From: an uncultured Alphaproteobacteria bacterium
Lineage (GTDB): Bacteria; Pseudomonadota; Alphaproteobacteria; RF32; CAG-239
NCBI GenBank assembly: GCA_934271465.1
Contig: CAKQRQ010000010.1
Coordinates: forward strand, 951 to 64,950
Direction: 5' to 3'
Length of the DNA stretch: 64,000 nt
Under the pieces are notes generated by a model, which ran no database searches, was not told the DNA's origin, and was given only the letters and a program-made list of their open reading frames with translations. Shown here one piece after another: positions 3,885-63,558 of this stretch. The number at the start of each line of letters is the position of its first letter. Within the stretch, counting starts at the first letter, position 1. A program made the position numbers and the translations under genes.

Positions 3885-4337
3885 ATGTTAAGAGAAGAAT
3901 TACAAAACGGTTTAAAAACAGCCATGCTTGCCAAAGATACCCTGACAACAAACGCCATCCGTATGATTATTGCCGGACAAAAAGAAAAAGATGTTGAAGC
4001 CCGCGGCAAAGGACAGGAAAAAGCCACCGACACTGAACTTTTGTCTATGATGCAGGGAATGATTAAGCAACGCAACGATTCGATTAAAATGTTTATGGAC
4101 GGACACCGCCCCGAACTGGCCGAAAAAGAAAAAGCCGAAATAGCCGTTATTGAGCGCTTTTTACCCAAACAAATGAGCCCTGAAGAAATGGAAGCAGCCA
4201 TCAAAGCCCTTATCGCTGAAACAAATGCATCTTCAATGAAAGATATGGGAAAAATTATGGGCGCACTCAAAACCAAATATGCCGGACAAATGGACATGGG
4301 CAAAGCCAACGGCCTTATCAAAACATTGCTAAGCTAA
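3885..4337 (+). CDS. GatB/YqeY domain protein
   Basis: RBS aaggag precedes ATG at 3885; MLREELQNGLKTAMLAKD...ERFLPKQMSPEEMEAAIKALI is typical of the YqeY/GatB C-terminal domain family. Its stop overlaps the convergent trxB stop by 4 nt. Confidence 0.75.
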   Translation: MLREELQNGLKTAMLAKDTLTTNAIRMIIAGQKEKDVEARGKGQEKATDTELLSMMQGMIKQRNDSIKMFMDGHRPELAEKEKAEIAVIERFLPKQMSPEEMEAAIKALIAETNASSMKDMGKIMGALKTKYAGQMDMGKANGLIKTLLS

Positions 4338-5581: not shown

Positions 5582-6055
5582 TTAAATATATTTAATATCA
5601 ATAATTTCAAAAGATTTTTGTCCCGACGGTGCCTTAAATTCGGCAACATCGCCTATTTCTTTGCCAATAAGGGCTTTGGCCAGCGGAGATGACAAAGAAA
5701 TCTTGTTTTTGACAATATCTGCCTCATAATCACCGACAATCTGATAAGACCTCTCTGTGTCATCATCTTCATCAGCAACCAAAACCGTTGCGCCAAAACG
5801 AACAACATCGCTTTTGATTGTGGGAACATCAATAACCTGCGCACGGCTCAACACAGCTTCCAAGTCCTGAATACGTCCTTCAATAAAGCTTTGTTTTTCT
5901 TTGGCCGCGGAATATTCGGCATTTTCAGAAAGGTCGCCTTGAGCGCGTGCTTCCGAAATAGCCGCAATGATATTCGGGCGTTCAACGCCTTTCAAATTTT
6001 TTAATTCGGCTTCCAACGCAATATAGCCGACTTTCGTCAGAGGTATTTTTTCCAT
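5582..6055 (-). CDS. greA: transcription elongation factor GreA
   Basis: MEKIPLTKVGYIALEAELKNLK...SENAEYSAAKEKQSFIEGRIQDLE matches the GreA N-terminal coiled coil and C-terminal FKBP-like domain; start chosen at the internal Met. Confidence 0.85.
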   Translation of the reverse strand: MEKIPLTKVGYIALEAELKNLKGVERPNIIAAISEARAQGDLSENAEYSAAKEKQSFIEGRIQDLEAVLSRAQVIDVPTIKSDVVRFGATVLVADEDDDTERSYQIVGDYEADIVKNKISLSSPLAKALIGKEIGDVAEFKAPSGQKSFEIIDIKYI

Positions 6056-6275
6056 TTTATCCACCTGTTTTTTGATTATTAGAAAAAAAGAACTGCGAGG
6101 GAGCAAAACTCCTTCACAGGCCGTTTGTCTTGTTATTGCTTTTACATATAGCACTCTTGGAAAAATAAATCAAGGACTTTTTCTTTTTGGGAAAAAAATA
6201 TTCTTTTTATATACATTCAAAAATTTTGTGCTAATCTCTAAAACGGTTTTAGAAATTTTTGGAGACTTATAAAAG

Positions 6276-8606: not shown

Positions 8607-8810
8607 AATAATAGAGCGTTTAAACGCTCCAGTCATTTCCAAGAGATTTCAAAAAATACACTTTTTAAGCGAACTGTCAACACATTGAAAAATAACGAAA
8701 AATTAAAATTATTGCTTTTTTAATAATTGGCTGATATACTTAAACCAATAGAGCGTTTAAACGTTGGTTTAAACGCTAGAGTCGGAGCGTCAACCACGGG
8801 GTTTTGTCTT

Positions 8811-10181
8811 ATGAAACAGCTTATTTTTATCCTTTTTACTTTTTGTGTTATTTCAAACACTTACGCATCTGACGAGTGTTTACATCGTCCAAGCTGTGAA
8901 GAATCAGGCTATACGCAGACTCGAAAAAAGTGCGCTTGTTTCAATAAAGACGTGCTCCCGTGTCCGTTTAATATTAATGATGATAACACAGTTTTCTGCG
9001 GAGATTTAGACTGCACGGATAAATGTAAAGATTTGCTTCCATTTTATGACGGACAAAGCAATACAAAAAAGATTATTGAACAGGCCGGCGAAAAAGGATT
9101 AGCTGCTTATGCGACAAATCTATTTTATGTTGGCAACAAGACAGGAGATTTCGGCCAAGGCAAATGGTATCTACCCTCTATCGGCGAATGGATGGATTTT
9201 ATCGGAACGGATATGTCTCAGGTTACACAACTTCTCTGGAGCAGCGGAAGTATCGGCGATAAAATGACACAGATTGAAGCCTCCCTTAAAACTTTAGCAA
9301 CCAAAGGAGCAGATGCTGAAATTTTAAGAGGAACGACATGGAAAGCTTATACAACATCATCACTATATGATAATGGTAAAAGTTGGATAATAGATTTGGC
9401 ACTTAAGTCAAGAAAAGTTGGCTATTTTCACCAACCAAGCGGCGGTGGGGGAAAAGTCCGTGCTGCTTTAATGATACGAAATTGTTTTAATCCGACAATC
9501 GGCGGAATTCCACCTAAAATCGGCGATGTAATGTATCAAGACAAAACCTATGGCGCTGTATCTGAGTATGACGGCAGCAAAACACCCGTCGGGGTTGTTG
9601 TCTCTGTTTCCGAAACCGGCCGCGATGTCATTATTCTGAATCTGAAAGATTTGACCTTCAATTCACAAACAGCGGTAAATAACTTTAATCCAGATAATCC
9701 CTACGGCGAAACGATTAACGTAATAGCTTGGGGGGTGCAAACTGTGGCATTAACATTCGGCACGGATGATTTTGTGACCGATTTGCAATCTTCCTGTAAC
9801 TGTAATTGCATGTTTTATGGAGAAGAAACAAACTGCCCCAAGGTTGACCATTGTGCGAAATATGATGGAAGTTGCTCCTGTTCAGAATGTGAAGAGGGAT
9901 ATTTGCTAGCGTATCAAGATGAAAAAATAGTCTGTTTCAAATATGACGGATGTTTCGGATGTCTGGTAGATGCCGGCGAAACCTATTACCGATATCAGGA
10001 TTATAAAACATTTAAAGAATGTTATGCGGTTTGCGGACCGCATTGCGAGCTGATGTCTTGCGGCGGCGTAACAGAATGTTATACTTGTGAAGGGGCTACC
10101 CAAAAAAAATGGATGGACTATGATAATTGCAGCATAGATTGTGAGAATTGCATCAAAACAAACGCTTGCTATTTTGAATAG
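8811..10181 (+). CDS. secreted Cys-rich modular protein with central DUF1566-like (GKWYLPSIGEW) domain
   Basis: Start chosen at MKQLIFILFTFCVISNTYA (signal peptide) rather than the ORF-track ATG at 8727. Has N-terminal Cys-rich repeats, a central domain, and a C-terminal Cys-rich NCPKVDHCAKYDGSCSCSEC module; paralog of 40073-42037. Confidence 0.7.
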   Translation: MKQLIFILFTFCVISNTYASDECLHRPSCEESGYTQTRKKCACFNKDVLPCPFNINDDNTVFCGDLDCTDKCKDLLPFYDGQSNTKKIIEQAGEKGLAAYATNLFYVGNKTGDFGQGKWYLPSIGEWMDFIGTDMSQVTQLLWSSGSIGDKMTQIEASLKTLATKGADAEILRGTTWKAYTTSSLYDNGKSWIIDLALKSRKVGYFHQPSGGGGKVRAALMIRNCFNPTIGGIPPKIGDVMYQDKTYGAVSEYDGSKTPVGVVVSVSETGRDVIILNLKDLTFNSQTAVNNFNPDNPYGETINVIAWGVQTVALTFGTDDFVTDLQSSCNCNCMFYGEETNCPKVDHCAKYDGSCSCSECEEGYLLAYQDEKIVCFKYDGCFGCLVDAGETYYRYQDYKTFKECYAVCGPHCELMSCGGVTECYTCEGATQKKWMDYDNCSIDCENCIKTNACYFE

Positions 10182-10230
10182 TTCTCATTAAACTTGCCTA
10201 GACTAATGTAAAAACAGCCCAAAATAAAAA

Positions 10231-10355
10231 AAGTCTGATATTTAAGGCGGATAGAAAAAAAGTCGGCTCAAAACACAAAAAAAGGCGAAGAATAGTTAAG
10301 CCTACATGACCGAGCCGGTTCTTTGATAGTTCTGTATTAGTTGCCAGCTAGACGC
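10231..10355. repeat. intergenic repeat element copy A (second copy at 63121-63289)
   Basis: aagtctgatattt..gcggatagaaa..agtcggc..acacaaaaaaagg...gcctacatgaccgagccggttctt.gat.gttctgtattagttgccagctagacgc is shared near-identically with 63121-63289; followed by degenerate tandem aaaaaggcggatag units to about 10560. Confidence 0.8.
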
Positions 10356-10597
10356 GTTTTGAAAAAGGCGGATAGTGGAATTTATAGAGTGATTTGAAGG
10401 GCGGAAAAAATTTTAGCGTAGATAAACCTACGTGAATTTTTTCCGTCCCGCACAAATTGCTCACTTCTCTAAAAAGGCGGAGAATAGTGCAGATAAAGTG
10501 ATTTTGAGGGGTGGCGAAAGCGGAGTTTACATAACAGTAAATGAGCATTTCGCCATGCCACGTTAAAATCGCTCTAGATGCGCTGTTATACGCCTTT

Positions 10598-11842
10598 TCA
10601 TTCGTAACGCAACGCATTAATCGGATTCAACAAAGACGCCTTGTAAGCGGGATAAAATCCGAAAAAGAGCCCGACAAATCCGGCAAATGAAAAAGGTAAA
10701 AGGACATAAATAAAGGACACTTTAGCCGGAAGCGAACTGAAAATCCCAACAAGGTAAGAACCTATGAGCCCGCAAAGAACACCAACAAGCCCGCCGATAA
10801 GAGAAAGAACCAGCGCCTCGGCCAAAAATTGCCTGCGAATATCCCAAGCCTTTGCCCCGATAGCCATGCGAATGCCGATTTCCCGCGTGCGTTCGGTCAC
10901 CGACACAAGCATAATATTCATGATGCCTATTCCGCCGACCAAAAGAGAAATAGATGCAATTGCTCCGAGCAAAATCGTCATAACCTTAGTCGAACTTTCC
11001 ATCATTTCCATCATCTGCGTCAGGTTCATAATCACAAAATCGTCATCTTTGTTAGCGCCCAGATTATGCCTTTGCCGCAAAAGCTGTTTGATTTCATCTT
11101 GCGCGGTATAGGTGCTGCGCGAATCAACCGCCTGCAGCATAATCATTTTAACCTGATCCAGAAACTTAATACCCATCAGTTTCTTTTGCGCCGTTGTAAT
11201 CGGAATATACACGGCATCGTCCTGATCCATACCCATACCGGACTGCCCGCGCGACACCAAAACCCCAATCACCTGAAACGGCACGCCCTTAATACGGATA
11301 GTCTTCCCTAACGAATCCACATCACCGAACAGCTCGTTAACAACCGTCTGCCCGAGAATAGCGACTTTAGACGCGTTTTTGACGTCTGTCTCCGAAAACA
11401 TCCGCCCATAAGAGAGCTTCCATTCTTTAATTTCAAACATCCGACTGTCGGTGCCGGTAATGCCGGTCGACCAGTTGGCATTGCCGTAAACAATTTGAGC
11501 CGTCTCATCCAAAACAGGCGCCGCAAGCCTGATGGCGGAAATTTTATCCTGAATAGCATCGCCGTCGCTTTTTTTCATCGTCGGCTGCGACCCATGTCCG
11601 CCGCGTGCGCCGGAAGACGTCGCCACGCCCGAACGAACGATAATCAGATTGGAGCCCATGGTTTTCATCTCGTTTTGAATAGAAATCTGCGCCCCGTTGC
11701 CCACCGACAACATCACAATAACCGCCGCCACGCCGATAATAATACCCAGCGAAGTCAAAATAGAACGCATTTTATTGGCTTTGATAGCGCGCAGAGCAAT
11801 CAAAAAAATCGTTTTGAGGTCAATCATGGTCATTCCTCTCAT
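10598..11842 (-). CDS. ABC transporter permease, MacB/FtsX family
   Basis: N-terminal TM segment, large periplasmic domain, C-terminal FtsX-like 3-TM bundle ([40 protein letters not shown]). Confidence 0.85.
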
Positions 11843-12509
11843 CCGAATGAATTTCGCCGTCTACAATTTTGATAATCCGCTTGGCATAACGGGCAATGTC
11901 TTCTTCGTGCGTCACCAAAATAATCGTGCGCCCGCCCTTATTGAGTTCCGTAAACAGGTTCATAATCTCAATGCTCATTTTGGTATCAAGGTTTCCGGTC
12001 GGCTCATCGGCAAAAATAATAGGCGCCTCGTTGACAATGGCGCGCGCAATAGCCACACGCTGCTGCTGTCCGCCCGAAAGCTGGTTAGGCTGGTGGTCCA
12101 TACGTTCTTTAAGGCCGACTTTTTCCAAAGCTTTTTGCGCCCTTTCCCGACGCTCCGCCGCGCCAACGCCGGAATAAACCATCGGCAATTCCACATTCTC
12201 AAGCGCCGTTGTGCGGGAAAGTAAATTAAACCCTTGAAAGACAAAGCCGATTTTTTGATTCCGAATTTGCGCCAGCTCATCTGAACTCAACCCGTCGACT
12301 CTTTTGCCGTCCAATAAATAACTGCCCGATGTCGGCTTGTCCAAGCAGCCCAAAATATTCATCAGGGTCGACTTGCCCGAACCAGACGGCCCCATAATGG
12401 CCACAAATTCCCCCAACCCGATATGAAGCGTTATGCCTTTAAGAATCTGAAGCTGCGTCTCACCCAAAGGATAGCTTTTTGTAATATTGTTAAGCTCTAT
12501 CAAACTCAT
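11820..12509 (-). CDS. ABC transporter ATP-binding protein (MacB-type ATPase)
   Basis: Walker [10 protein letters not shown], signature [14 protein letters not shown], Walker [13 protein letters not shown]; overlaps the downstream permease start. Confidence 0.9.
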
Positions 12510-24877: not shown

Positions 24878-24947
24878 AATTGAGGCCGTTTTAAAAGCCA
24901 AAAGGCGGGAAGCTCAAAGCTTTCCGCCTTTTTTAATGCAACCGAAG

Positions 24948-40017: not shown

Positions 40018-40072
40018 ACAATCTGTTATATTAATATCTCCGTGAAAGTTTTCACTTCCACGGAGATTTTTG

Positions 40073-42037
40073 TTATTGCGCAATACAGCTCAGCCCATCA
40101 TCCGAAAGCTCATATTCAACACCATAGGTGGAACTGCTACACCACCTACAAGAGCAATCATCTTGATAAGATCCGCAATGTTCTATTATGGGGCAATCCG
40201 AACTATTTGAATAGTCAATAACACAACGAATATGTTTTTGTGCACTCTTCTTATTTAATTGAAAGCTTGCCGTCCCTCTCTGAATAGCGACAAAGTAGGT
40301 AGATGAGTTTTCTGTTGAAGTTGCAAGATCTCCTATATGAAAATCATTACCACCCAAAACAGTTTTTGATCCAAACTTTAATGCCGAAGCATCAAAAAGA
40401 CAGACCATGGGATGTCCTTGTCCAATCATCGATAGAACTTCTGCGGCCGCTGGCAAATACCACTTACCTTTATCGGAATCTGTGACGCCATATTTGCTGC
40501 AATATACGGCTGCCGAATTTTCTTCAGCTCCGGCTGCAATGATACAATCTGTATTGGCCTGACCGTCTGTTCTGCTGTTACATCCGGTCTCCGTATTCGC
40601 CAAATTTTCACTCCAAGGAAGAGTAACCTCATCTAAAGATAGAGCTAACAGACGACCTGTATTGACATTGCTAGCCCTAAAAATTATACCTATCGGCGTT
40701 CTGTCTGACGGGAAATTGTCAGGATCATAACAGTTGAAATCATCATAAAGCACCATTCCAGGAACACATTCATCAGCAGAATAAACACATTTATTATCCT
40801 TCAACGTAAATCCTCTGGCGCAAACAGCGCATTCTGTTTCAGAAGCACATTGTTTACAATAATCTACGTCGCACATATCAGCATAGGTATGGCAATAGTT
40901 TTCCCTACAGCTTCCTTCAAATAAATATCCATCAAAAGACCTATCGCAAGCTGTACATTTACAACCAACCCATTCACTATCGTATTCAGAACAATTAGAA
41001 TCCGCTTTATAACATATCTCTCGACACTCATTAGTTTCACTATCAAACAGATATTTTCTAAACCCATTCTTACTGGAACAATCCTCACAAGCACAGGTAT
41101 CTGCATTAAAGGCCTTACCCTCAGCCGCACAAGTCGCCGCAGTCAAAGAACACGAGCAATCATAATAACATTGTGTGACGCTCGCCTCTCCGGCATAACC
41201 CGATCCGATATAAAAGTCGTTGCTACTGCAAGAATAATTTTCCGGTTCCGCATCAAGATAATCAGAATTAACTTCCTGACAATTTCTATAGCACGTGACA
41301 CACTGGCCATTATACAAGCATTTATCCGCACCTTCACAACAATCCGCATCATAACAAGTTGTCTTCTCGGCATTACTTGGAGCTACTCCAATCCAATATT
41401 GTGGATCAACCGGACAATCGTTTGCGGTAGATTGAAGATTTTTTGCCGGACTTTGCGCTGCTCCGGCCGCGGCACAGCTTGGATAATAAGGCGTGCAAAC
41501 ACCATTATCATCAACTTCCGTCGCTTTGCAGCATTTTGAATTATAACAAATTTTCTTTTGGAGAGAAGCATTTCCGTCAATATAAATGACAACTGTTTCG
41601 CAACCCGTATCTTCATCTGAATATCCCGCACTATGGCAATCTTTATAAGGCTTCCGGCAATTCCCGTCAATCTTATAATACCCATCCGGACAGCAATGAA
41701 TATAACAAGTTGTTTCTTCCCCTTTGACATAGATTTTAACCGTGCCGCAGCCTTGAGAAGTCGTATAATAACCGGCATCTTCACAGCTGTCATAATTTGG
41801 ATAACACAACTCGTTGACTTCTATCTTTCCATCAGGGCAGCTGCCGCTTGCCCCGCCGCAAAAAAGCTTGGTTGTATCAAACGGGCATCTGACGATTTGT
41901 TTGCCGTCACATTCCTCAAGGGTATTGACATACCCCATCTCATCACAGGTGGGCTCCACCGACGGACAGTCTTGTGAAGAGGCCGGATTGGCAAGCAATA
42001 TAGCCATAAGTCCGAGAAGAAGATATTTCTTTTCCAT
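40073..42037 (-). CDS. secreted, extremely Cys-rich modular protein with DUF1566-like (GKWYLP) domain
   Basis: Signal peptide MEKKYLLLGLMAILLANPASS; dozens of Cys in repeated CxxxGY...GC modules; DUF1566-like core CSKYGVTDSDKGKWYLPAAAEV; C-terminal DCPIIEHCGSYQDDCSCRWC module homologous to the 8811-10181 C-terminus. Confidence 0.7.
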   Translation of the reverse strand: MEKKYLLLGLMAILLANPASSQDCPSVEPTCDEMGYVNTLEECDGKQIVRCPFDTTKLFCGGASGSCPDGKIEVNELCYPNYDSCEDAGYYTTSQGCGTVKIYVKGEETTCYIHCCPDGYYKIDGNCRKPYKDCHSAGYSDEDTGCETVVIYIDGNASLQKKICYNSKCCKATEVDDNGVCTPYYPSCAAAGAAQSPAKNLQSTANDCPVDPQYWIGVAPSNAEKTTCYDADCCEGADKCLYNGQCVTCYRNCQEVNSDYLDAEPENYSCSSNDFYIGSGYAGEASVTQCYYDCSCSLTAATCAAEGKAFNADTCACEDCSSKNGFRKYLFDSETNECREICYKADSNCSEYDSEWVGCKCTACDRSFDGYLFEGSCRENYCHTYADMCDVDYCKQCASETECAVCARGFTLKDNKCVYSADECVPGMVLYDDFNCYDPDNFPSDRTPIGIIFRASNVNTGRLLALSLDEVTLPWSENLANTETGCNSRTDGQANTDCIIAAGAEENSAAVYCSKYGVTDSDKGKWYLPAAAEVLSMIGQGHPMVCLFDASALKFGSKTVLGGNDFHIGDLATSTENSSTYFVAIQRGTASFQLNKKSAQKHIRCVIDYSNSSDCPIIEHCGSYQDDCSCRWCSSSTYGVEYELSDDGLSCIAQ

Positions 42038-45086: not shown

Positions 45087-45117
45087 TCAGACACCAACGT
45101 TCAAAAAAAAGCGGTTT
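45087..45117. terminator. bidirectional rho-independent terminator
   Basis: aaaaaaaagcggtttctaaaccgcttttttt between convergent genes. Confidence 0.7.
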
Positions 45118-46131
45118 CTAAACCGCTTTTTTTGTATCTTGATTGGCAATTTCCTGCATTCTGAAAAGCTTAAGCCGCTCAATCTGCTGTTTCTTAACAT
45201 ATTTGAGATATCCCTCATAGCCGAACAGCACAAAGGCCGACAAAATCAACGGCAGTAGGTAATAGATAATGCGGTAAGCCAACAGCGCGCCAAACAGCAT
45301 CGCCCGATTATGGTCGCCGGGGATAATATACATAAACAGCCCCTCAAACACGCCCAATCCGCCGGGAACCTGACTGAACACGCCCAAAACCTGCGCAATG
45401 ATAAACACGCCCATAAAGGTCGAAAACGGAATATCGACAAAGGCAATCAGCGAGAAATAGAGCACCAGCGAGGCCATCAAAATATCCGCACCCCCGATAA
45501 TGACCTGAGCCAAAGCCATGGGCGGCCGCGGCATATCAAGCTCAACGCCTTTGATAATCAAAGGTTTGCGATACCAGATGCTCAAAGCAAAATACCCCAA
45601 AAGGCCGACTGCCGAAATCAGCGTGACTACCTCGGTTGTCAGTTTTGACACGGAACCGTCGCCAAAAGCGTGATTCGGCGTGATAAAATAGCCGATGATA
45701 ATCAGCAAAAAGCACGCGACCAAATAAGTAAAGCCCGAAAACGTAACCATGCGGACAATCTCGGTGCCTCTGAAACGCCATCTGGTATAGAGGCGATAGC
45801 GGATTGTGCCGCCGGAAACAATGGCATGACCGGCGTTGTTGCTGACCGAAAAGCCGATAAATCCGGCAAAAATCCATTTCCACGGCGCAAGCTTCCGCCC
45901 GATGTAGCGCAAGGCCAAATAATCATACGAGGACAACGCGACATAGCCCAAAAACGACGCCGCGCACGCCATCAACAGATTGTGCGGCGGGATAGACATC
46001 AAAGCATTTTTGATGTCCTCAAGGCTGTATTTTGAAAGCTGGCGATAGAGCATATACGCCGCCACGCCAAAGAAAAACAGCCCCGCCCAAGAGAGAGCCT
46101 TTTTGAGAATCTTTTTTGTCTGAACCGCCAT
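45118..46131 (-). CDS. UPF0104 / lysylphosphatidylglycerol-synthase-TM-like (flippase-like) membrane protein
   Basis: About 8 TM helices, start at MAVQTKKILKK; last gene of the minus-strand glycan operon. Confidence 0.55.
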   Translation of the reverse strand: MAVQTKKILKKALSWAGLFFFGVAAYMLYRQLSKYSLEDIKNALMSIPPHNLLMACAASFLGYVALSSYDYLALRYIGRKLAPWKWIFAGFIGFSVSNNAGHAIVSGGTIRYRLYTRWRFRGTEIVRMVTFSGFTYLVACFLLIIIGYFITPNHAFGDGSVSKLTTEVVTLISAVGLLGYFALSIWYRKPLIIKGVELDMPRPPMALAQVIIGGADILMASLVLYFSLIAFVDIPFSTFMGVFIIAQVLGVFSQVPGGLGVFEGLFMYIIPGDHNRAMLFGALLAYRIIYYLLPLILSAFVLFGYEGYLKYVKKQQIERLKLFRMQEIANQDTKKAV

Positions 46132-54466: not shown

Positions 54467-54513
54467 TCAGCCCAAACCTTTATCTTATAACACTTTACCA
54501 GCGGCGATTCGAT

Positions 54514-54658
54514 TCTTCATAAACCACCGTCTAGAATATATATCAGACCTTTTACACTATTAAAAAGAACAATGCAACCCAAAAGTTGGGTTTTCCTGTA
54601 TTTTTGCCATTTTACAAATTGTTGATTTTGTTTGTTCGCAAACGGTGGTTTATGAAGA
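54514..54658. promoter_or_regulatory. candidate invertible DNA segment flanked by 17-bp perfect inverted repeats
   Basis: tcttcataaaccaccgt (54514-54530) and its exact reverse complement acggtggtttatgaaga (54642-54658) flank 111 bp carrying TTGCAT-N17-TAAAAG-like promoter elements; it lies immediately upstream of the recombinase-like gene heading the glycan operon. Confidence 0.45.
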
Positions 54659-54733
54659 TTTGATGCAAACACGGCTGCTCGGCCGTTTTTTTGTAAAAAA
54701 AATCCGCCAAAGAAACACTCTTCCGGCGGAAAA

Positions 54734-54807
54734 TGGAGCAGGTAACGGGAATCGAACCCGCATATTAAGCTTGGGAAGCTCACATTCTACCATTGAATTA
54801 TACCTGC
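54734..54807 (-). tRNA. tRNA-Gly (anticodon CCC)
   Basis: Reverse complement GCAGGTATAATTCAATGGTAGAATGTGAGCTTCCCAAGCTTAATATGCGGGTTCGATTCCCGTTACCTGCTCCA; cloverleaf with anticodon loop TTCCCAA and terminal CCA. Confidence 0.85.
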
Positions 54808-60272: not shown

Positions 60273-60335
60273 TCCTTTTCTAAAAAGCCCTGATGAAAAA
60301 TCAGGGCTTTTTATTTTTTCTTAGTAGAAGAATTT

Positions 60336-62357
60336 TCATCCAAACAAGGCAAGCACGCTCTGGGCGGAATTTGCAGCAAGGGAAAGAGCGTTGGTGGCGA
60401 GTTGCTGGCGGGTTTGGAGCGCCAAATAATTCGCAGATTCCTCGTTCATATCAGCCAAAACGAGATTATCAGCCCCTGTTTCCAAAACATCTGTCAAAGC
60501 CTCGGTAAAATTTTGACGTGTCTGAATAATACTGTAATTGTTGCCTAATTCTGATTGAAATGTGCGAATTTTGTTAACCGCCGCCAAGAGCTCTTGAATT
60601 GAGTTTGCGATATCTCCCTGCGTTGTCCATTCAGCTTTGGTCAGTCCTAACGCGGCGGAACTCATATCCTTTCCTTGGACTGTTAGTTTGTTGTTTCGGG
60701 TTTCGTTGAACACAACGTCCAATTTTTCATTTTTGAGTAAATTAACGCCTTGATATGATGAGTCATTAATTAATTTATCATACTGCTCAAAAGCTTTGTT
60801 ATATTGATCGATGAGCGAGTCAGCAATTTGTCTGGTCGACGTATCTGAAGAAAATGTATTTGTAACTTCAATCTCACCGCGGGTTTGAAGCAGTGAAGAG
60901 AATATATCGTTTTCAAGGTTTTGAATCCCCGTAATGTCTATATTTCTATTGCCCCAATATGTCACTTTAAACCTCCCGCCATACGGATTATCCGGATTAA
61001 AATTCCCCGTGCCGAAAAATGAGCTAAACGTCAAGTCCCTCAGGTTGATAATTGTCGCATCGCATCCGTCTCCCGAGACGGCCGCAATCACGCCGACGAC
61101 CTTTTTGCTGCCGTTGTAATCCGCCGCCAAACCCCACGTTTTATCTTCATACATGACGTCGCCCACTTTGGGCGCCGTTCCATCCGCGGACGGATTAAAA
61201 ATATTTTTTAAAAGCTGAGAACAACGCATGGCGCCCGTGAAATCCTTATAATAGCTTTCCAAGTCGCCATCACTTCCGTCGATCCTCCATGAAGTGCCTG
61301 AAGTCTCCTCAGACGAGGACCAATAAGGAAAGGAGCGGAGAGCTGCCGCATCAACACCTTTGGTAGCAAGCGCATTCAAGGCGTTATTGATAAGGAGCAT
61401 CTTATCGCCTATAGCACCGGTTAAGCTGCCTCTGCCCGTTATTTTGCTAGTGTCTGTGCCGTAAAATTCCATCCACTCGCCTATTGAAGGCAAATACCAT
61501 TTACCTTGGCCGAAGTCGCCGTTTTTGTCACCGACATAAAATTGGCTTGCTGCACTGGCTGCCAGTCCGGCTTCTCCGATTTGGTCGAGAATGGCTTTTG
61601 TATTTGCTTGTCCGTCGTAAATCTCCATTGCTGCAACATTGCCATTGGCAAGTCTTTGCGCCCCTGTGCCGCTAACCGTAATTCCAAAGGTATTATCTAA
61701 CGTCAATTTACCGCCGTTCAACACCCTGATACCGGCAACTTTTTCTCCTGAGGCGAAAATTTTCAAATTGCTAATGCTTGCACTGTTTCCGGTTCCATCT
61801 ATCTCTATGGCTGATTTACCGGATTCTGTAGCAGTGTAAGAGATTTTGTGCCCGTTGCCGTCTAAAGTCACATTCGCCGCTGTGATACGGAGCTCAGTTG
61901 TTAAGGTAATGTCGCCTGAAAGGACAACTTTTGCGCCTGCGGCAATAGCGGCTTGAAGCTCTGCCTCTGTGCCAACGGCCGTATAGCCCTCGGCGATATA
62001 ATCTTCTATCGATTTGCCCGCTGTCGTCCCTGAACCTGAGGCACTGCCGATTTGGCTCAAGGCCTCGTTTGCAACGGCCGAGGCTTGTTCGAGGAATGAG
62101 GCACCGCTTGTCAGGCCTTGCGTCGCCGCTTGGATTGTTTGTATCCCCTGTCCCATCGCGTCTAATAAGGCGTCTAAATCCGAGGCTCTGTTTGTGAGAG
62201 CTCTTGCTTGATAATAGCTTGAGGCATTATCAATTGCGGAATTGACTTTCTTTCCTGTCGAAAGCCTTTCCTGTGTCGTGTTCATTTGTTTGGAGATGTT
62301 TTTCAGGCTGTTTAAGTTGCTCCGCATTGACGCCGTCAGCGTGATACTCTTTACCAT
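60336..62357 (-). CDS. flagellin-family protein with large inserted central domain (beta-helix-like plus DUF1566-like module)
   Basis: N-terminus SITLTASMRSNLNSLKNISKQMNTTQERLSTGKKVNSAIDNASSYYQARALT... and C-terminus ...ANYLALQTRQQLATNALSLAANSAQSVLALFG match flagellin D0/D1 helices. The central about 400 aa includes repetitive beta-helix-like strands and FYVGDKNGDFGQGKWYLPSIGEWMEFYGTD, nearly identical to the 8811-10181 protein. Confidence 0.7.
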   Translation of the reverse strand: MVKSITLTASMRSNLNSLKNISKQMNTTQERLSTGKKVNSAIDNASSYYQARALTNRASDLDALLDAMGQGIQTIQAATQGLTSGASFLEQASAVANEALSQIGSASGSGTTAGKSIEDYIAEGYTAVGTEAELQAAIAAGAKVVLSGDITLTTELRITAANVTLDGNGHKISYTATESGKSAIEIDGTGNSASISNLKIFASGEKVAGIRVLNGGKLTLDNTFGITVSGTGAQRLANGNVAAMEIYDGQANTKAILDQIGEAGLAASAASQFYVGDKNGDFGQGKWYLPSIGEWMEFYGTDTSKITGRGSLTGAIGDKMLLINNALNALATKGVDAAALRSFPYWSSSEETSGTSWRIDGSDGDLESYYKDFTGAMRCSQLLKNIFNPSADGTAPKVGDVMYEDKTWGLAADYNGSKKVVGVIAAVSGDGCDATIINLRDLTFSSFFGTGNFNPDNPYGGRFKVTYWGNRNIDITGIQNLENDIFSSLLQTRGEIEVTNTFSSDTSTRQIADSLIDQYNKAFEQYDKLINDSSYQGVNLLKNEKLDVVFNETRNNKLTVQGKDMSSAALGLTKAEWTTQGDIANSIQELLAAVNKIRTFQSELGNNYSIIQTRQNFTEALTDVLETGADNLVLADMNEESANYLALQTRQQLATNALSLAANSAQSVLALFG

Positions 62358-63120
62358 ATCACACCTCCGATTTTACAAAAACCGTCATGTTCGGGCTTGA
62401 CCTCTCTTTTGTCATCCTCGTGCCCGAGCGCAAGCGAGGAATAGACACGGGGATCCAGGAAAATTTTGATTCCTTGTTCGACCTGGATATTCGGGTCAAG
62501 CCCGAATATGACAGAAAAGGAAATCGGCTCCGCCTCGGGCACGAGAATGACAGAAAATTCTTCTGTAAGCCTAGAAACTGTAAGGGGGAGGGTAAGACGA
62601 GGCGTGTGCTTGAACCACCCGCGGCGCACACCGCAAGTCCGTTCAATCCGTTGATGTTATTTCCTAAAATCACGCCTAGAACCTCGTTTTTACACCTCAA
62701 AAGGAGAGCAAAAGTTCTCCTTTTTACTCTCCTTTTAACCTATTATCTTTCCTCTCCGTTTCAATCTGTTTCGAAAACTTATGCAGAGATTTTTTAACCC
62801 CAAGCAAAAACAAACTGGGTTCGGGCTTAATTTACAACTTCTTAGTGTTGGCGTGCAAAGAGTTAAAGAATAATACGGGTGTAAAGCAGCGGTAGCGTTC
62901 AGTCGTTTGCCGCCAACACTTAGAAAGTAAATTCCAGCCCGATGACTTTTGGTTACTTTTGGTCACTCAAAAGTAACGTAAAACGATGCTCAAACTTTCA
63001 CCAAAAAATAATTTGGAAATTTAAATAAGGATTCTTTGTTTCACCTAGATTTCCGGGTCAAGCCCGAAAATGACCGATTCTTACTTTTCCGTCCCGAACA
63101 AATTGCTCTCCTTTTGAAAA

Positions 63121-63289
63121 AAGTCTGATATTTGGAGCGGATAGAAACAAAAGTCGGCACAATACACAAAAAAAGGTGGATAGCGTGCGCAAATAATAAG
63201 AACTGAGAAAACCGGCGACGGGAGTGTAGTTGAGCCTACATGACCGAGCCGGTTCTTCGATTGTTCTGTATTAGTTGCCAGCTAGACGC
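63121..63289. repeat. intergenic repeat element copy B (related to 10231-10355, with about 47-bp internal insertion)
   Basis: Direct sequence match to copy A at both ends; additional shared motif ttttccgtcccg(a/c)acaaattgctc at 63085-63110 and 10437-10465. Confidence 0.8.
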
Positions 63290-63294
63290 CTTTT

Positions 63295-63558
63295 TTACTT
63301 AGAAAGAGCACCCTTCAAATTCTCCAAGCTCTCTTTGGCATCATTAATGGCTTTTTCCTGCTCGGCCTTTTTAGCGGCTTTATCGGCTTCGACCTGAGCT
63401 TTTTTGGCCGCCGCTTCGCTCTTCTGAGCCTCTATTTTGGCTGTGGCGGCATCGGCTGTTTCTTTGACCTTATTAGCGGCCGATGTAACATCCCATTCGG
63501 CATGGGCAACGGTTGTAAAAGCCAAAACAGCAGCCATAACGGCAAAAAACTTTTTCAT
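63295..63558 (-). CDS. small secreted Ala/Lys/Glu-rich coiled-coil protein
   Basis: Signal peptide MKKFFAVMAAVLAFTTVAHA, then AAKKAQVEADKAAKKAEQEKA low-complexity helix. Confidence 0.45.
   Translation of the reverse strand: MKKFFAVMAAVLAFTTVAHAEWDVTSAANKVKETADAATAKIEAQKSEAAAKKAQVEADKAAKKAEQEKAINDAKESLENLKGALSK

Follow-up and report, generated by a model that had tools for sequence, protein, structure and literature searches.

The stretch of DNA analyzed here (the window) comprises 64,000 nt from an uncultured Alphaproteobacteria bacterium and has a GC content of 43%. All coordinates and the + strand refer to this stretch. Its proteins match exactly those of metagenome-assembled genomes (MAGs) from human gut samples, including Hadza. 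Two regions of the window, locus A and locus B, share a repeated block (copy A and copy B), which a preliminary description had delimited as an element of ~125 bp. Folding gives a different unit, a long imperfect hairpin of ~125 nt. The two loci carry two intact copies of this hairpin (10471-10599 and 63170-63295) together with fragments of four subfamilies, named B, u2, u3 and M1. Contig loci of strains, relatives or metagenomes that were compared with the window are designated L001-L038. The features of the two loci are given below, with the basis of the assignment in brackets (CM, covariance model).

8811-10181, + strand: W484, the gene of a secreted, Cys-rich DUF1566-like protein, upstream of array A in the same orientation and strain-variable (49% identity to the flagellin insert; PF07603 in homologs).
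10226-10267, + strand: 5' arm fragment of subfamily M1, the first half of copy A, followed by a 9-nt spacer (aligns to the M1 5' arms at L038 2560-2686 and 12017-12143 and to window 63117-63158).
10277-10360, + strand: B-subfamily hairpin with a 43-nt deletion in the 5' arm; it makes up the second half of copy A (94% identical to 63227-63294; gap from the alignment).
10362-10470, + strand: u2-subfamily hairpin without its 3' basal ~25 nt, with the inner hairpin 10387-10462 intact (fold and CM match).
10471-10599, + strand: u3-subfamily hairpin, complete, with its 3' base overlapping the stop codon of the convergent permease gene (fold, CM).
10598-11842, - strand: MacB/FtsX-type ABC permease gene, stop codon abutting u3 (Pfam MacB_PCD and FtsX; annotated in L011-L020).
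60336-62357, - strand: flagellin gene, its central part a DUF1566-like insert, with array B in the 940 bp upstream of it (Flagellin_N and Flagellin_C, weak Lcl_C match; NCBIfam flagellin models).
62797-63109, no strand assigned: strain-variable 313-bp block with other small palindromic repeats, beside array B (in the window, L003 and L004; not in L001, L002 and L005-L010).
63085-63116, + strand: u2 3' arm fragment (24 of 24 with one mismatch to 10439-10462).
63117-63158, + strand: M1 5' arm fragment, followed by a 9-nt spacer (aligns as 10226-10267 does).
63168-63296, + strand: B-subfamily hairpin, complete, abutting the stop of the 87-aa gene (fold; CM match 63170-63295).
63295-63558, - strand: 87-aa hypothetical gene, stop codon abutting the B hairpin.

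The similarity between the two loci is real. It spans 10227-10360 and 63117-63294 at 89-94% identity, and resolves into 10293-10360 against 63227-63294 (94% over 68 nt), 10227-10261 against 63117-63151 (89%) and 10255-10285 against 63146-63176 (90%). The stretch unique to copy B is present as the preliminary description had it, at a measured 43 nt rather than ~47, but it is no insertion. These 43 nt form the 5' arm of the intact hairpin, and the deletion therefore sits in copy A. Copy B with its 43 nt is the ancestral state, and copy A is the same hairpin minus most of the 5' arm. A second shared motif, TTTTCCGTCCCG(C/A)ACAAATTGCTC, also held up at 10439-10462 and 63085-63108 (84% over 37 nt); at locus B it is the u2 3' arm fragment, of which a full-length version precedes M1 in L038, near 12150-12200. 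The ~110-bp units described at locus A are likewise located where they had been placed, with AAAAGGCGGATAG-like starts at 10242, 10363, 10472 and 63171 (nine matches to the pattern at up to two mismatches, against 2.6 expected). They had been taken for degenerate tandem copies of copy A; they are instead successive members of one hairpin family.

The ends of the unit are conserved, 5'-AAAGGCGGATAG ... CTAGACGCCTTT-3', as is the apical stem-loop AG-YGUAS-loop-SUACRU-GA, which is invariant across the family. In the + orientation the 5' side presents (A/G)(A/G)AAAGGCG, GA, UAGC,., GCA, GA, UAGAGUGAUUU, a variable inner stem and then the apex, after which the 3' side returns through a variable segment, AAAUUGCUCUA, GA, UGC,., GCUA, GA and CGCCUUU(Y)(Y)-3'. 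The base of the hairpin is terminator-like (AAAAAGGCG/CGCCUUUUU). Two 2x2 internal loops are formed by conserved tandem G.A mismatches (GAUAG opposite CUAGA), which together with the apex are common to all four subfamilies and to distant genomes. The inner stem is wholly different between copies and yet complementary in each (AAGGGGAAAAAGU, AAGCCCGAAAGU, GCGGUCAAAAUUC). For 10 copies, pairing holds in 94% of cells and both partners have changed in 19 of the 38 pairs, a level reached by none of 500 shuffles, while slid controls pair only 35-49%. With 16 copies from the four subfamilies, 28 of the 38 pairs show compensatory change, and the G.U pair that closes the apical stem is found in 16 of 16. 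This covariation bears out the structure. The option of a regulatory or RNA element, which the preliminary description had offered, forms part of the reading preferred below.

The fold is also strand-specific. Each of the full units first examined (9/9) folds 5-20 kcal/mol better in the + orientation, with 2-6 G.U pairs compared with 0-2 in the other. Within the window, the u3 hairpin (10471-10599) folds at -62.8 kcal/mol on the + strand (z -11.2) and at -43.6 on the - strand, with a CM score of 91.3 bits; the B hairpin of locus B (63170-63295) at -67.5 (z -7.7) and -49.9, with 94.7 bits; and the inner hairpin of u2 (10387-10462) at -37.9 (z -5.2) and -28.1, u2 matching the CM at 42.6 bits over model positions 27-100. 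The z-scores of the window hairpins thus range from -5 to -11. The shortened B copy at 10277-10360 folds no better than shuffles (z 0.1), compared with z -7.7 for the intact B copy. This asymmetry shows that one single strand has been under selection. Rfam reports nothing at gathering score in the window bar two tRNAs elsewhere, the two regions giving only chance-level matches (E above 1), and ARAGORN finds nothing at either locus.

Dispersal of the family was followed with a search pattern built from the conserved ends and with a covariance model, R1, built from 10 full copies. The end-pattern scan disclosed five full copies on 5 contigs of one MAG, and one copy in a second, among "uncultured Alphaproteobacteria" MAGs from rabbit gut. 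R1 added a second tandem copy in L026, which brings the rabbit-gut total to at least 7 full copies on 6 contigs; on 5 contigs of one MAG alone there are, under the strict end pattern, at least 6 full copies. In these rabbit-gut copies a conserved segment of ~35 nt stands ahead of the hairpin. The metagenome scan contributed only L029 and a duplicate of locus B, and further copies, some of them in close relatives of the source, are present at L034, L036 and L038. The species-specific character attributed to the repeat in the preliminary description is refuted by these members. Whether from one genome or from different ones, copies at unrelated loci have 90-97% identity, and the B hairpin of locus B is 100% conserved in 10 contigs. 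L023 and the window share only 71% nucleotide identity over a homologous stretch of 1.9 kb, so the family spans distant relatives. We conclude that the family is dispersed across loci and species in a lineage of uncultured Alphaproteobacteria of the gut. Two candidates were rejected: L025 (Tiamatella), a chance end-pattern match with no hairpin (14.7 bits, E about 1), and L030, a viral contig whose end-pattern match has no CM match. The plasmids, phages and E. coli genomes searched gave no match, and R1 run with filters off found no further family copies in the window.

The copies are combined in ways that reveal their turnover. The composite nature of the repeat is confirmed, as the block of M1 5' arm plus B hairpin is seen at window locus A, window locus B and L034/L036, and the array M1 arm-B-u2 is common to window locus A and L036. 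Full copies of M1 (AAAAAGTCTGATATTTG ... CAAAGAGCAGACTTTTT) lie at L038 2560-2686 and 12017-12143. In L034 the M1 3' end (CAGACTTTTT) comes after the B hairpin; B therefore sits inside an M1 copy. Complete u2 copies occur in L029, L036 and L038, and also at locus A itself in strains L015/L016, where u2 follows straight after the permease stop codon with no u3; among strains with an identical ATPase, some have u3 and others lack it. Locus B compares with the relative L038, which shares 95-96% identity with the window's species in PFOR and the 87-aa gene, as [B][M1 arm] in the window against [M1 full][u2 full] in L038. Window 62805-63158 is 88.6% identical to a different locus of that relative (L038 12103-12470). 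The break in synteny falls exactly at the repeat array: two Lcl_C-like genes, then PGK and GAPDH, stand in L038 in place of the flagellin-SecA neighborhood of the window (window 60336-62357 against L038 3044-8385). Many metagenome contigs stop inside or just past arrays. The arrays turn over rapidly, and nested and composite copies are among the products.

The position of the hairpins with respect to genes is regular. In 10 of 12 independent loci, an open reading frame (ORF) on the opposite strand terminates close to the hairpin, the 3' end of the + orientation unit falling between -24 and +11 nt from the ORF's stop codon (offset -1 for u3 at locus A, 0 for B at locus B); in L022, L023 and L024 this stop codon is supplied by the TAG within the CTAG of the element. 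These convergent ORFs are for the most part housekeeping genes (MacB-type permease, GluRS, cytidylate kinase, QueH, CarD, class II tRNA synthetase, HlyIII). On its 5' side the hairpin has a co-oriented neighbor in 8 cases and a divergent one in 3. It is to a convergent housekeeping stop codon, and not to a DUF1566-like gene, that the hairpins are most regularly positioned. In the window's lineage, 4-6 T follow the hairpin base. The same base is found in short terminator-like hairpins of the window, such as 24899-24933 (AAAAGGCGG..CCGCCTTTT). This hairpin, together with 45105-45132 and 60282-60312 (the last between the convergent SecA and flagellin genes), gave weak R1 matches that fit only the base of the model, and we read all three, which are short hairpins, as ordinary terminators. 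A terminator consensus scan calls none of the family hairpins, whose stems exceed its limits. A sigma-70 consensus scan was uninformative and showed no promoter-like site upstream of the hairpins. The GC skew of the window + strand is -0.14, by which the well-folding strand would be the leading-strand template; the skew of the relatives' 8-kb loci is mixed, and we draw no conclusion on replication orientation.

The association with DUF1566-like genes that the preliminary description had drawn is upheld beyond the window. W484 is 49% identical over 257 aa to the central part of the flagellin, and its homologs carry PF07603 (the Lcl_C/DUF1566 domain). Among loci found by DNA pattern alone, L022 (with two in tandem), L023 and L026 have adjoining paralogs; with the two window loci, 5 of 9 loci adjoin such genes. 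Chance would give roughly 10% if ~5% of genes belong to the family (binomial p about 0.001, a rough estimate), and hence the association is unlikely to be chance. Counted from the gene side, hairpins lie within 1 kb at 2 of 6 sampled paralog loci. The hairpin is co-oriented with, and downstream of, the DUF1566-like gene at window locus A, L022, L023 and L038.

A third, weak DUF1566-like homolog lies at window 40364-40567, inside the ORF 40073-42037 (- strand; 35% over 72 aa to W484). It has no adjoining hairpin repeat, only a short terminator at 40033-40070.

The region upstream of W484 has features of its own. A ~120-bp segment (8608-8780) is flanked there by inverted repeats with the palindrome AGAGCGTTTAAACGCT (8608-8631 and 8748-8780). 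Matching segments are present at the paralogous loci L033, L034, L036, L037 (twice) and L038, with 76-90% identity and in the opposite orientation relative to the gene. A promoter-like site in the segment, TTGACA-N16/17-TATTTT, faces away from W484 in the window. From this arrangement we regard the segment as a putative invertible promoter, the off state of which, if it is one, would fire towards the neighboring gene. This putative direction is that of hairpin stability at the divergent-type loci (L034, L026 and window locus B). In L038, this segment with its flanking inverted repeats is also found at 5649-6110, between two divergent Lcl_C-like paralogs (932 aa, - strand; 794 aa, + strand) and could be a toggle between the two.

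The family is previously undescribed, while the kind of bacterial repeat to which it belongs is already familiar. REPINs have conserved ends around a less conserved spacer, retain their hairpin through compensatory changes, and occur in clusters and as singlet remnants (PMC3116915). The hairpins of this work share these properties: inverted conserved ends and a variable spacer form a long hairpin in which compensatory changes were found, and the copies are extragenic, clustered in tandem and accompanied by one-armed remnants. Recognition in REP/RAYT systems is strand-specific and dependent on conserved irregularities of the stem (PMC8266576). The differences from REPINs are also clear. The GTAG foot is missing, all copies having GGCG-GATAG in the 5' arm and CTAGA-CGCC in the 3' arm; in the window's lineage the only GTAG is that of the apical stem, where the rabbit-gut lineage has GTAC. 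The two arms do not take the form of short REP palindromes, and the apical stem-loop is conserved. REP/REPIN systems have a cognate single-copy RAYT gene (a Y1 HUH transposase) and tens to hundreds of copies per genome; here the annotated neighbors of ~30 loci included no RAYT gene, and the copy number is apparently low.

ERIC sequences are intergenic, are co-transcribed with their neighbors and have orientation-dependent effects on mRNA (PMC2229807). The family resembles ERIC/IRU, a 127-bp imperfect palindrome, in its nearly equal size, in a hairpin over the whole length and in its intergenic location. The host lineage is another one, and blastn of 63110-63300 against 5,426 complete E. coli genomes gave no match and so no ERIC similarity. 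To our knowledge, neither the rule of abutting a stop codon nor four subfamilies with a variable inner stem are ERIC features. In its A-tract, GC-rich base and T-tract between convergent genes, the hairpin is like a bidirectional intrinsic terminator. It differs from one by a stem of ~55 bp, compared with 5-15, by its conserved internal loops and apex, by its dispersal as a sequence family and by the lack of a U-tract in the rabbit-gut lineage. Miniature inverted-repeat transposable elements (MITEs) such as Correia/NEMIS, RUP and RPE are small non-coding long stem-loops with stops in several frames that can fuse to gene ends (PMC2229807). Small non-coding size, the long stem-loop, stop codons in several frames and fusion to gene ends are features in common with MITEs. 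The termini of the unit are inverted repeats. On the other hand, neither a TA duplication nor any other duplicated target can be seen, there is no related insertion sequence, and the whole unit is palindromic rather than its termini alone.

These observations argue that whole and broken copies of one REPIN/ERIC-like hairpin family make up a small array at each window locus, and that the repeat acts as a transcript-end hairpin, a reading that we consider probable, with room for doubt. The copies would have spread and been reshuffled at the DNA level, either by a single-strand-specific enzyme or by recombination among copies. They would probably be retained because the hairpin of the transcribed + strand terminates or insulates transcripts that run towards the convergent gene, in most cases a housekeeping one. 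Such transcription might come from strong, possibly invertible, promoters of the neighboring DUF1566-like genes, a source that would explain why the + strand is favored, why copies stand in tandem arrays and why they are associated with DUF1566-like genes. Several results count against this view. The rabbit-gut copies have only UUU after the base (GCCUUUCC), which rules out intrinsic termination as a role common to all copies. Locus B has neither a co-oriented gene nor a predicted promoter upstream. The strand asymmetry is retained with DNA energy parameters, so that selection at the level of RNA and of single-stranded DNA cannot be told apart. As for spread, we saw no clean empty site, no duplicated flank at 12 junction pairs that would denote a target-site duplication, and no transposase or RAYT (no Y1_Tnp among the annotated neighbors of ~30 loci, no whole genome having been scanned). 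The copy number in the source genome looks modest, at two loci in ~90 kb, and an exact 21-mer of the B core has 0 matches in species-representative genomes (either the source stretch is masked there or no other exact copy exists).

Alternatively, the hairpins could be genes or cis parts of structured RNAs of the + strand with a dedicated function, such as a protein-binding small RNA or a 3' untranslated-region element of DUF1566-like genes, in which case their multiplicity would be that of paralogous RNA genes and not of selfish spread. The strong covariation, the invariant G.U pair, the conservation of the tandem G.A loops and apex across four subfamilies and distant genomes, the ~35-nt segment ahead of the rabbit-gut hairpins and the co-oriented location downstream of DUF1566-like genes are what such RNAs would lead one to expect. 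We nonetheless think this unlikely. The hairpins have no Rfam match and no upstream promoter-like site, half of the loci are without a DUF1566-like neighbor, and the asymmetry seen with DNA parameters is not peculiar to RNA. Moreover, strains whose flanking genes are 95-100% identical differ by truncated, nested and swapped copies, which is not how conserved RNA genes behave.

It is somewhat less likely still that the hairpin is the substrate of an unrecognised strand-specific enzyme, either HUH/RAYT-like without GTAG or a recombinase linked to the putative promoter switch of the DUF1566-like genes. Such an enzyme would place stop-proximal copies, all in one orientation, and would cause phase-variable genes of surface proteins to be gained, lost and exchanged. 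If true, the family would represent a REPIN-like system of a new class, one inherently linked to a family of surface-protein genes.

The preliminary description had proposed that the repeats moved the DUF1566-like domain between the two loci. In its wider form, the repeats would be recombination sites or the boundaries of mobile cassettes that exchange DUF1566-like genes, akin to integron attC sites or to sites of a promoter-flipping recombinase; we consider this improbable. Besides the adjoining paralogs at 5 of 9 loci, it finds support in the strain-variability of W484, one boundary of which is at the 5' edge of the M1 arm, and in the synteny break at array B in a 95%-identical relative. As in attC sites, structure is kept over sequence, the basal boxes are conserved around a variable central stem, the strands are asymmetric and the neighboring genes are variably present. 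No attC site was identified, however: the R'' (RYYYAAC) and R' (GTTRRRY) boxes are absent in either orientation, the ends being GGATAGC/GCTAGAC (+) and GTCTAGC/GCTATCC (-) with no GTT triplet. There is no integrase in the annotated neighborhoods of the loci and no cassette array, and many copies are scattered between housekeeping genes only. W484 has no repeat on its other flank, and the repeat array is entire in strains L012/L013, from which W484 is missing. Nothing indicates that the domain was moved by the repeats; the domains shared by W484 and the flagellin are only 49% identical and are old paralogs. The inverted-repeat motif of the putative promoter switch, TAGAGCGTTTAAAC, is not in the hairpins at up to 3 mismatches. 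A possible kinship between this motif and the mid-stem of u3 (CTAGAGCGATTTTAACG) would require an indel, and a search allowing up to 3 mismatches does not recover it.

Across the W484 region, the whole gene and its upstream segment (window 8640-10238) are absent from L012/L013, which have ~35 nt instead (9277-9311). The presence/absence boundary at the M1 arm is marked by TCTGATATTT, and the other lies at the doubled inverted repeat.

Finally, simple local duplication or chance similarity, which has in its favor only two loci in the 64-kb window and a B-core 21-mer with no exact match elsewhere, is refuted by members at unrelated loci of several genomes with conserved structure and covariation, where the preliminary description had allowed that a genome search might yield these two copies alone.

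Other repeats accompany the arrays. A second, unrelated palindromic family, GTCAT..GGATCCAGG..CCTGGAT..ATGAC with an inner TTCGGGCTTGACCCGAA hairpin, is found just upstream of the start codons of the flagellin and DUF1566-like paralogs and is strain-variable (window 62384-62560 and 63023-63077; L022 5018-5105 and 6340-6437; L026 5440-5505; L021 ~3900-3990). Inside the 313-bp block beside array B, another hairpin of ~90 nt (62839-62925) has 28-nt arms that are 75% complementary, with the near-perfect small palindrome TTGGTTACTTTTGGTCACTCAAAAGTAAC near it. The rabbit-gut MAG has a conserved ~150-nt module upstream of its DUF1566-like paralogs (L022 5105-5270 and 6490-6640; L026 5650-5800), in which two direct repeats of GGTACCTTTAAAT(T)GCA surround a CTTGACA site and are followed by a short terminator; its GCAATTTAAAGG core resembles the mid-stem of the hairpin. 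An inverted repeat at window 54509-54663, just downstream of tRNA-Gly(CCC) (54734-54807), has 22-nt arms that are 91% complementary and 111 nt apart, and its sequence is unrelated to the hairpin family.

Should the reading of both loci as arrays of a transcript-end hairpin family be correct, a little-studied uncultured lineage of the gut has its own family of structured intergenic repeats. The repeats would mark assembly breakpoints, strain-variable gene content and breaks in synteny, and would matter accordingly for the assembly of MAGs and for strain typing. The fixed orientation at convergent stops, the G.A loops and the invariant G.U pair would make the family a clean case in which insulation at the RNA level can be set against recognition of single-stranded DNA by a mobilising enzyme. 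The neighboring DUF1566-like surface genes, which are possibly phase-variable, would offer a testable reason for the persistence of the repeats.

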